Assembly: GCA_028865725.1 (NCBI GenBank)
Contig: JAGWJP010000002.1
Span: 168,050 to 232,049 of the forward strand
From: Patescibacteria group bacterium
GTDB lineage: Bacteria; Patescibacteriota; Minisyncoccia; UBA6257; JACRHW01
Reading direction: 5' to 3'
DNA: 64,000 nt
A program made the translations under genes and the position numbers. The notes under the pieces are model-generated. The model made no database searches, was not told the DNA's origin, and saw only the letters and a list, made by a program, of their open reading frames with translations. Below are positions 17,045-18,752 of this stretch, piece by piece. The stretch's first letter is position 1. Each line of letters opens with the position of its first letter.

Positions 17045-18752
<1,708 letters not shown>

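Follow-up and report, generated by a model that had tools for sequence, protein, structure and literature searches.

A Parcubacteria 16S rRNA without an anti-Shine-Dalgarno sequence: a conserved replacement tail, and canonical Shine-Dalgarno motifs on accessory genes

The 16S rRNA gene in the window (the whole stretch of 64,000 nucleotides, or 64 kb, analyzed here) encodes a full-length small-subunit rRNA in which the anti-Shine-Dalgarno (aSD) sequence CCUCC does not follow helix 45. In its place stands a tail that is conserved across a large clade of Parcubacteria, and canonical Shine-Dalgarno (SD) motifs nevertheless precede about 20% of the genes in the window. The account that we consider probable is that this is a functional and single 16S, that the aSD was lost in an ancestor of the clade and the tail replaced, that initiation on core genes is SD-independent, and that the SD motifs were imported with the genes that carry them. 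The loss of CCUCC would have occurred in an ancestor shared with the Wolfe-, Lipton-, Harrison-, Colwell-, Jorgensen- and related "bacteria"; there, the conserved AUCAAUUAAAYU would have taken the place of the 12 nt that follow helix 45, and the sublineage of the window would have added a 4-nt insertion to it.

The bacterial SSU model RF00177 matches the minus strand from 18752 to 17041 over model positions 1-1533 with 1408.5 bits (cmscan, Infernal), a full-length match above the gathering score of 50, and the 16S rRNA gene is accordingly annotated as full length at 17041-18752. CCUCC is typical of this family, yet it is not needed for membership. In the scan of the 3' end, the block GUCGUAACAAGG-CACGUGUAGC-GGAA-GCUGUGCGUG-GAACAAUUAUUUU aligns with the consensus ...GGAUcACCUCCUUu at maximal posterior probability. 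Helix 45 (CACGUGUAGC-GGAA-GCUGUGCGUG; 17054-17077, minus strand) is intact, with the GGAA loop of the SSU family and all pairs standard, and the tail after it reads GAACAAUUAUUUUAACU where the consensus has GAUCACCUCCUUU. The 13 nt that follow the helix, GAACAAUUAUUUU, align without gaps to the consensus GAUcACCUCCUUu, again at maximal posterior probability; AUUAU occupies the positions that are normally CCUCC, and the CCUCC-bearing single-stranded tail of the family is missing. In full, the tail (17033-17053, minus strand; GAACAAUUAUUUUAACUAGAA, or in short form AACAAUUAUUUU) starts at 17053 and reads G-AACAAUUA-UUUU-AACUAGAA. An earlier note on this DNA had claimed that the 3' tail lacks CCUCC after a conserved helix 45; the covariance-model alignment agrees, and places the 3' end where that note had put it. 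Relative to the bacterial model, the gene also has three insertions, all on the minus strand: 76 nt at the tip of helix 44 (17134-17208), 103 nt near model position 458 (~18170-18270) and 32 nt in helix 6 (~18640-18670). The helix 44 insertion is missing from the sister 16S genes L102 and L125, which have other insertions elsewhere.

The organism, an uncultured bacterium, belongs to the Parcubacteria (Paceibacteria) within the CPR. Indeed, the helix 45 pattern of its 16S retrieves almost only Parcubacteria lineages, the homologues of its CCA enzyme are labelled Parcubacteria or Patescibacteria, and the nearest genome is a "Parcubacteria group bacterium" (L102/L123).

In RNAduplex calculations, AAGGAGGU pairs with the canonical tail at -11.6 kcal/mol and with the window tail (17033-17053) at -0.5 kcal/mol. 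By sequence and by duplex energy, a ribosome with this 16S is unable to form the SD-aSD helix, and core genes would therefore be started without SD pairing. Within the 16S gene the sole copies of CCUCC, at 17634 and 17617, are paired with GGAGG in the hairpin of the V6 region. A scan of the pre-rRNA found no CCTCC on the rRNA strand from 17053 to the terminator at ~16780, which bears out the claim that no aSD complement occurs in the next 180 nt. A hidden aSD, downstream or elsewhere, was rejected: in the pre-rRNA and across the entire window, scans for CCTCC and CACCTCCTT matched only the paired hairpin of V6, sequences complementary to SD motifs, and T-arms of tRNAs. No RNA supplying an aSD in trans was found in the window.

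CPR 16S genes often have insertions, and the three in this gene raise the possibility of an assembly error, a pseudogene, or an insertion that parts helix 45 from a true aSD further downstream; the earlier note had itself written that a genome-wide strong SD signal would imply an error or insertion at this 3' end. The surroundings of the gene speak against all of these. A sigma-70-type promoter, TTGACA-16-TATACT, with 11 of 12 consensus positions, lies upstream at 18918-18945 (minus strand). The leader segment AGUUAUUUUUCUUAUCACCCUGU (18791-18813, minus strand), which is kept in L125, is complementary over ~21 bp to CAGGGUGAUGAGAAAAGCAACU at the end of the trailer (16930-16909, minus strand), and the two halves read as the usual processing stem around 16S. 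Beyond the stem, a long hairpin, AACGUAACGCGCGAG...CUCGCGCGUUAC, is followed by a U-run (16780-16903, minus strand) and is probably the terminator of a stand-alone 16S unit; the segment 17085-16775 (minus strand) folds at -101.2 kcal/mol, with z = -4.4. The next CCTCC on the strand falls within a conserved protein gene. Moreover, the same tail, with UUUC replacing UUUU, is found in L102 (a GTDB MAG, of the same assembly as L123) and in L125 and L127 (JGI metagenome contigs). Four independent assemblies, that of the window included, thus agree on the tail, and the model matches over its whole length, its helices intact. An insertion or error at the 3' end is excluded by the stem between leader and trailer, by the terminator, by the conserved gene that follows and by the three further assemblies, and we regard an artefact as effectively refuted already, its chances being close to nil. 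The 16S gene appears instead to be a self-contained transcription unit, neither an error nor an oddity private to one genome.

The trailer (16909-17032, minus strand) contains blocks that pairwise alignment and motif positions show to be conserved in L102, L125 and L127, namely CAAUCCUAGUAGGCGAU at 17000-16984 and AUUGGUCGAGGAAC at 16959-16946 (minus strand). Another block conserved in the same three members of the sublineage reads AUUGGUCGAGGARC ... GUUUCGAC, and a GGUCGAGGAGC-like block recurs 3' of 16S in distant relatives that share the replacement tail (alt-tail relatives). The trailer matches no family in Rfam. Directly 3' of the unit lies a gene for a Lamin-tail-domain protein (14917-16767, minus strand; Pfam LTD), and its orthologues adjoin the 3' side of 16S in L102, L122 and L127 (tblastn, and the gene table of L122). 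A hidden 3' exon or a 23S gene in this place is excluded, because these orthologues follow 16S in the relatives. A 23S gene had been suggested by GTCGA...GGTCGAGGAGC blocks that resemble the 5' end of 23S; it was rejected, as the Rfam scan detects LSU neither in the window nor in 18 relatives, and 23S motifs match in none of the loci.

The tail itself is neither random nor confined to one lineage. With the tail left free, a helix 45 pattern hit at least 119 loci in the GTDB species representatives, nearly all from Parcubacteria lineages. Among the 122 helix-45-matched Parcubacteria loci with readable tails, the canonical AUCACCUCCUUUCU is found in 22 (Uhr-, Magasanik-, Kerfeld- and Azambacteria and others) and CCUCC is missing in 100. 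The non-canonical tails begin AnYAAUUA in 78 of the 100 cases and have the 12-nt consensus AUCAAUUAAAYU. Over 95 distinct sequences, the information content is 1.2 to 2.0 bits at 11 of positions 1-12 and 0.8 bits at position 2; position 13 has 0.6 bits or less, and the positions beyond it ~0.2. A few lineages have intermediate tails, for example AACAUCUCCUUU, AUUAUUUCCUUU and AUUUUCUCCUAG. The window tail is the clade sequence (compare L081, AACAAUUAAACUAGAA) plus 4 nt: the UUUU at 17044-17041 is an insertion within the clade replacement tail G-AACAAUUAAACU. We found no description of the replacement sequence in the literature searched.

Judging by this conservation, AUCAAUUAAAYU would be under selection. 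The conserved stretch is as long as a normal 16S tail, which suggests that the mature 3' end lies in the usual place; in the window it is expected near ...AACAAUUAUUUUAACU. Because the tail is conserved over that length, a protein or assembly-factor partner is favored, and the tail may be bound by some ribosomal or assembly component. The constraint is not absolute, since the 4-nt insertion is tolerated in the lineage of the window. The analyses run revealed no such partner. Era normally binds GAUCA together with CCUCC, and era is lost in most CPR. YbeY, an endoribonuclease implicated in maturation of the 16S 3' end, is encoded in the window (ybeY, 5765-6205, minus strand; Pfam YbeY, 4.8e-25). 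The best complement of the tail within 16S is the universal segment GGUUUAAUUCGAUC, at -11.6 kcal/mol; this pairing was rejected and is given no weight, because 19 of 200 shuffled tails equal that energy.

A conserved tail could also be a new aSD, pairing with a new SD (GUUUAAUU / UUAAUU) upstream of genes. Start-codon contexts in the alt-tail relatives, gathered from the loci's flanks of ~8 kb by means of a simple ORF caller, with internal sites as controls, bear on this directly. TAATT, TTAAT and AATTA are enriched about 3-fold in the -20 to -1 region of these relatives, as such pairing would have it. However, the enrichment arises because TATAATT(A) boxes stand at fixed positions, at -12, and not from any complement of the tail; AATTG shows no enrichment in the same region. 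Neither GUUUAAUU nor UUAAUUG occurs at a set position, and GUUUAAUU / UUUAAUUG are not consistently placed before genes. Matches to GTTTAATT / TTTAATTG 2 to 15 nt from ORF starts vary in placement and share no gene family, most of them lying within the coding sequence of pilins, and nothing comparable occurs in the window. The lineage of the window, moreover, tolerates 4 nt inserted in mid-tail. An alternative SD complementary to the new tail was rejected for want of a positioned upstream complement, and we hold a replacement aSD to be highly improbable.

What precedes genes in the alt-tail relatives is, instead, a promoter-like signal. SD enrichment is not significant there (a 6-mer SD at 14 of 505 genes and 7 of 505 controls). 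The start context shows A in 45% at -11, T in 40% at -7 and T in 36% at -12. TAnnnT starting at -12 precedes 57 of the 505 genes, against a background of ~15, and exact TATAAT occurs 40 times beginning at -15 to -12 and twice at -11 to -7. A -10 box with this geometry places the transcript start at or just before the AUG, which suggests that these relatives have leaderless or near-leaderless mRNAs. In the sublineage of the window, TACAAT/AATAAT boxes are conserved 6 to 8 nt before the AUG of the spoU and cca orthologues, and pth has a conserved, SD-less leader of ~20 nt. In the 64-kb window itself the signal of a -10 box at the start is not above background. In the account that we prefer, some core mRNAs would be leaderless, with a -10 box ~7 nt before the AUG, and others would have short leaders rich in A, U and C, presumably translated with the help of bS1. 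The gene for this protein, rpsA (40463-41770, minus strand; four S1 domains, Pfam S1, 1.2e-39), is present and SD-less, and its product is a candidate for mediating initiation where leaders have no SD.

The SD motifs of the window are harder to accommodate. We scored ORFs of at least 100 aa for a 6-mer SD core at -22 to -4, with internal coding sites as controls, and found one in 12 of 61 ORFs and at 1 of 61 controls (Fisher p = 0.002). This frequency exceeds that in other alt-tail relatives (p = 2.5e-6) and is also higher than that in the canonical-tail relatives sampled (8/94). The motifs are canonical, with spacings of 5 to 11 nt. AAGGAGG-7-AUG leads the start at 23080 (plus strand) of an ORFan membrane protein (23080-23931; AAGGAGGauucuucAUG at 23059-23082), and AAGGAGG-8-AUG the start at 29785 (minus strand) of the ORFan 29213-29785 (AAGGAGGaauaaaaaAUG at 29783-29806). 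AGGAGG-9-AUG is found at 33211 and GGGAGG-8-AUG at 28055 and 40335 (minus strand), and AAGGAG precedes the starts at 14844, 19704, 28741, 35840, 2376 (minus strand) and 10607. The earlier note had stated that most starts have no GGAGG-like motif and that a handful do; it was right in direction and understated the exceptions.

These motifs are not spread evenly over gene classes. Pfam annotation covered 57 genes of the window, 13 SD-led and 44 others, and a Pfam domain is missing in 9 of the 13 and in 9 of the 44 (p = 0.0018). A domain is present in the SD-led thyA, folA, YkuD transpeptidase and trypsin-like protease genes. In contrast, the housekeeping genes are SD-less: ftsZ, ftsA, ybeY, hisS, lepB, pth, spoU, cca, recG and a rluA-like gene, as well as rplS, murD, rpsA, gyrA, dprA, topA, relA, parB and sua5. 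The thyA-folA pair (61423-62816, minus strand) is SD-led at both genes, with AAGGAGG-11-AUG at 62792 and AGGAGG-10-AUG at 61932. Its thyA is 70 to 74% identical to DPANN thyA (Woesearchaeota, Nanoarchaeota, Aenigmarchaeota), and among the best 120 matches listed every named match is DPANN, with no bacterial name. This closeness indicates inter-domain transfer and suggests gene exchange between CPR and DPANN. The ORFan 29213-29785 has no homologue but itself among 5.8 billion (5.8e9) proteins; its paralogue at 28148-28741 is recent. Two paralogue pairs without known domains, this one and 13287-14054 / 14140-14844 (minus strand), have SD-like leaders. A prophage origin of the SD-led hypothetical genes was rejected, as none has a PHROG match.

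This distribution is why the SD signal does not overturn the reading of the rRNA. A genome-wide strong SD signal had been named in advance as evidence against an aSD-less 16S, and an SD signal is indeed there, significant on ~20% of the genes in the window; the rRNA reading stands, because the genes that carry the motifs are accessory, ORFan or horizontally acquired ones. The proposal of SD-independent initiation had to be narrowed. It fits the SD-less housekeeping genes and is indicated for core genes only, the significant canonical SD on the remaining fifth falling outside it. The AAGGAG(G) motifs most likely arrived with ORFan or horizontally acquired genes, and the ribosome of the window would not need them.

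Against that preferred account, the SD signal is strong, has canonical spacing and recurs in the sister genomes L122, L123 and L124. The SD-like motifs might then be functional and read without a 16S aSD, either bound by a protein or serving very short leaders as a structural or 5'-terminal element. Their canonical sequence and spacing would fit this, as would the gene for an M28 peptidase, whose AAGGA(G) is kept in the same three sister genomes while the spacer diverged, a pattern that looks like selection rather than a decaying relic. Together with a frequency above that of canonical-tail relatives, this case leaves room for the motifs having some role. The alt-tail genomes L126 and L128 have perfect AAGGAGG heptamers as well, and one alt-tail genome that has the heptamer is Harrisonbacteria-like. 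Also counted in favor is TCTTTG[AG], which recurs ahead of the motif in the window as well as in L123 and L124. As TCTTTG[AG]AA it stands 8 to 14 nt upstream of several purine-rich SD-like motifs (window 40365, 28081, 14869, 14071 and 2408, minus strand; L123, 4846 and 14590; L124, 4791 and 6202); its UCUUU could pair with AAGGA, and its GAnAAT may be a -10 box that would put the transcript start at the purine motif. On the other hand, the motif is the exact complement of the canonical aSD, it is missing on housekeeping genes and enriched on ORFan and transferred ones, and coding regions show no significant depletion of internal SD-like motifs (z = -0.6 to -1.7, an underpowered comparison). 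We know of no mechanism that reads SD-like motifs without a 16S aSD, and we think this explanation unlikely.

An SD signal needs a partner, and one could come, for a subpopulation of ribosomes, from another 16S gene or from a distinct small RNA that has the normal CCUCC tail. CPR genomes normally have one rRNA copy. Two 16S types in one genome are on record in Alteromonas (Amin et al. 2018, PMC6107228), and the present genome was read over 64 kb. Nevertheless, the 16S gene is embedded unbroken in a 162-kb contig, and in another assembly in a 236-kb contig. A scan of JGI metagenomes with a lineage-specific pattern that leaves the tail open returned the aSD-less tail only, with no canonical-tail version of this 16S type, and no CACCUCCUU-type RNA occurs in the intergenic DNA of the window. 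A look for a further copy by way of an ORF within the rRNA gave no match on record. A second source of aSD is thus very doubtful. A broader combination, in which the 12-nt tail AUCAAUUAAAYU is under purifying selection with a new ribosomal or assembly function and the SD motifs of the sublineage are maintained and used despite the aSD-less 16S, has some chance of being right, though not a large one. If the motifs are used, a reader other than the 16S tail, or a second small-subunit rRNA, is required.

Several other features of the window were recorded. Proteasome-subunit-like genes at 31587-32198 and 33201-33977 (minus strand) flank the SD-led gene 32318-33211 for a 297-aa protein with no known domain, a cluster that is unusual for a CPR bacterium. 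Downstream of the genes for tRNA-Ile (51428-51501) and tRNA-Leu (59306-59392), at a distance of 60 to 140 nt (~51555-51590 and ~59510-59535, plus strand), stand partial copies of their 3' ends that look like attachment-site scars left by integrated elements. A T4SS-pilin domain occurs in each of three small tandem genes (48331-49532, plus strand), which are SD-less and are preceded by a fourth small ORF at 47879-48247. A 318-aa protein at 36662-37618 (plus strand) has a weak match to a PI3/PI4-kinase domain (3.7e-7); as called, this ORF overlaps tRNA-Leu at 36666-36752, and the true start probably lies downstream of the one called.

SD-aSD pairing is the textbook mode of start-codon recognition in bacteria, and a whole bacterial radiation without its rRNA half is a natural experiment on what else suffices. 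Gene callers that score ribosome-binding-site motifs will misplace starts in aSD-less genomes. The conserved replacement tail suggests that the 3' end of 16S does more than pair with mRNA. The perfect SD motifs of acquired genes would be either neutral baggage of horizontal transfer or read by something besides the 16S tail.

Among known modes of initiation without SD, that of Bacteroidetes resembles the window in that most genes are SD-less and initiation relies on other leader features. Bacteroidetes, however, keep CCUCC in their 16S, where it is sequestered, whereas the 16S of the window lacks it. Actinobacteria, Deinococcus and many archaea are rich in leaderless mRNAs, keep a normal aSD and have SD on internal genes of operons. 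The alt-tail relatives share with them the TATAAT-type -10 box at -12 to -7, a signature that is weak in the window itself. Closer in the rRNA are the aSD-less bacteria of Lim et al. 2012 and Amin et al. 2018 (PMC6107228), which include some Mycoplasma, Carsonella, Blattabacterium, Chryseobacterium and Elizabethkingia. As in these taxa, the 13-nt tail after helix 45 has no CCUCCU, and no variant SD matches the variant tail. Unlike these taxa, which have a degenerate tail, the Parcubacteria have a new tail conserved across a large clade. The general rule given by Amin et al. 2018 is that organisms without CCUCCU are also without an SD signal. The absence of enriched SD-like motifs holds for the other alt-tail relatives and, in the window, for housekeeping genes only; the window as a whole, with canonical AAGGAG kept on about one gene in five, contradicts the rule.

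The closest precedent is the Parcubacteria subgroup in which Tsurumaki et al. 2022 (RNA 28:1041, PMC9297842) report that CCTCCT is missing, at a motif detection rate of 48%, and which, in the passages at hand, overlaps the group lacking uL1. In the window, Pfam finds no Ribosomal_L1 among the genes of the 64 kb. To judge from those passages, the clade is the same, CCUCCU is likewise missing from the 3' end of a 16S that has insertions, and the helix 45 signature is common to the window and to the Wolfe-, Lipton-, Harrison- and Colwellbacteria of the aSD-lacking subgroup. The core finding is therefore already known at clade level, and the statement that an aSD-less 16S is rare holds among cultured bacteria, whereas in this subgroup it is the published norm (PMC9297842). 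The same passages describe no replacement sequence, analysis of start-codon context or residual SD motifs. As far as checked, then, what is new here is the conserved replacement tail, the leaderless signature in the relatives, and the presence of canonical SD motifs on accessory genes of an aSD-less genome.
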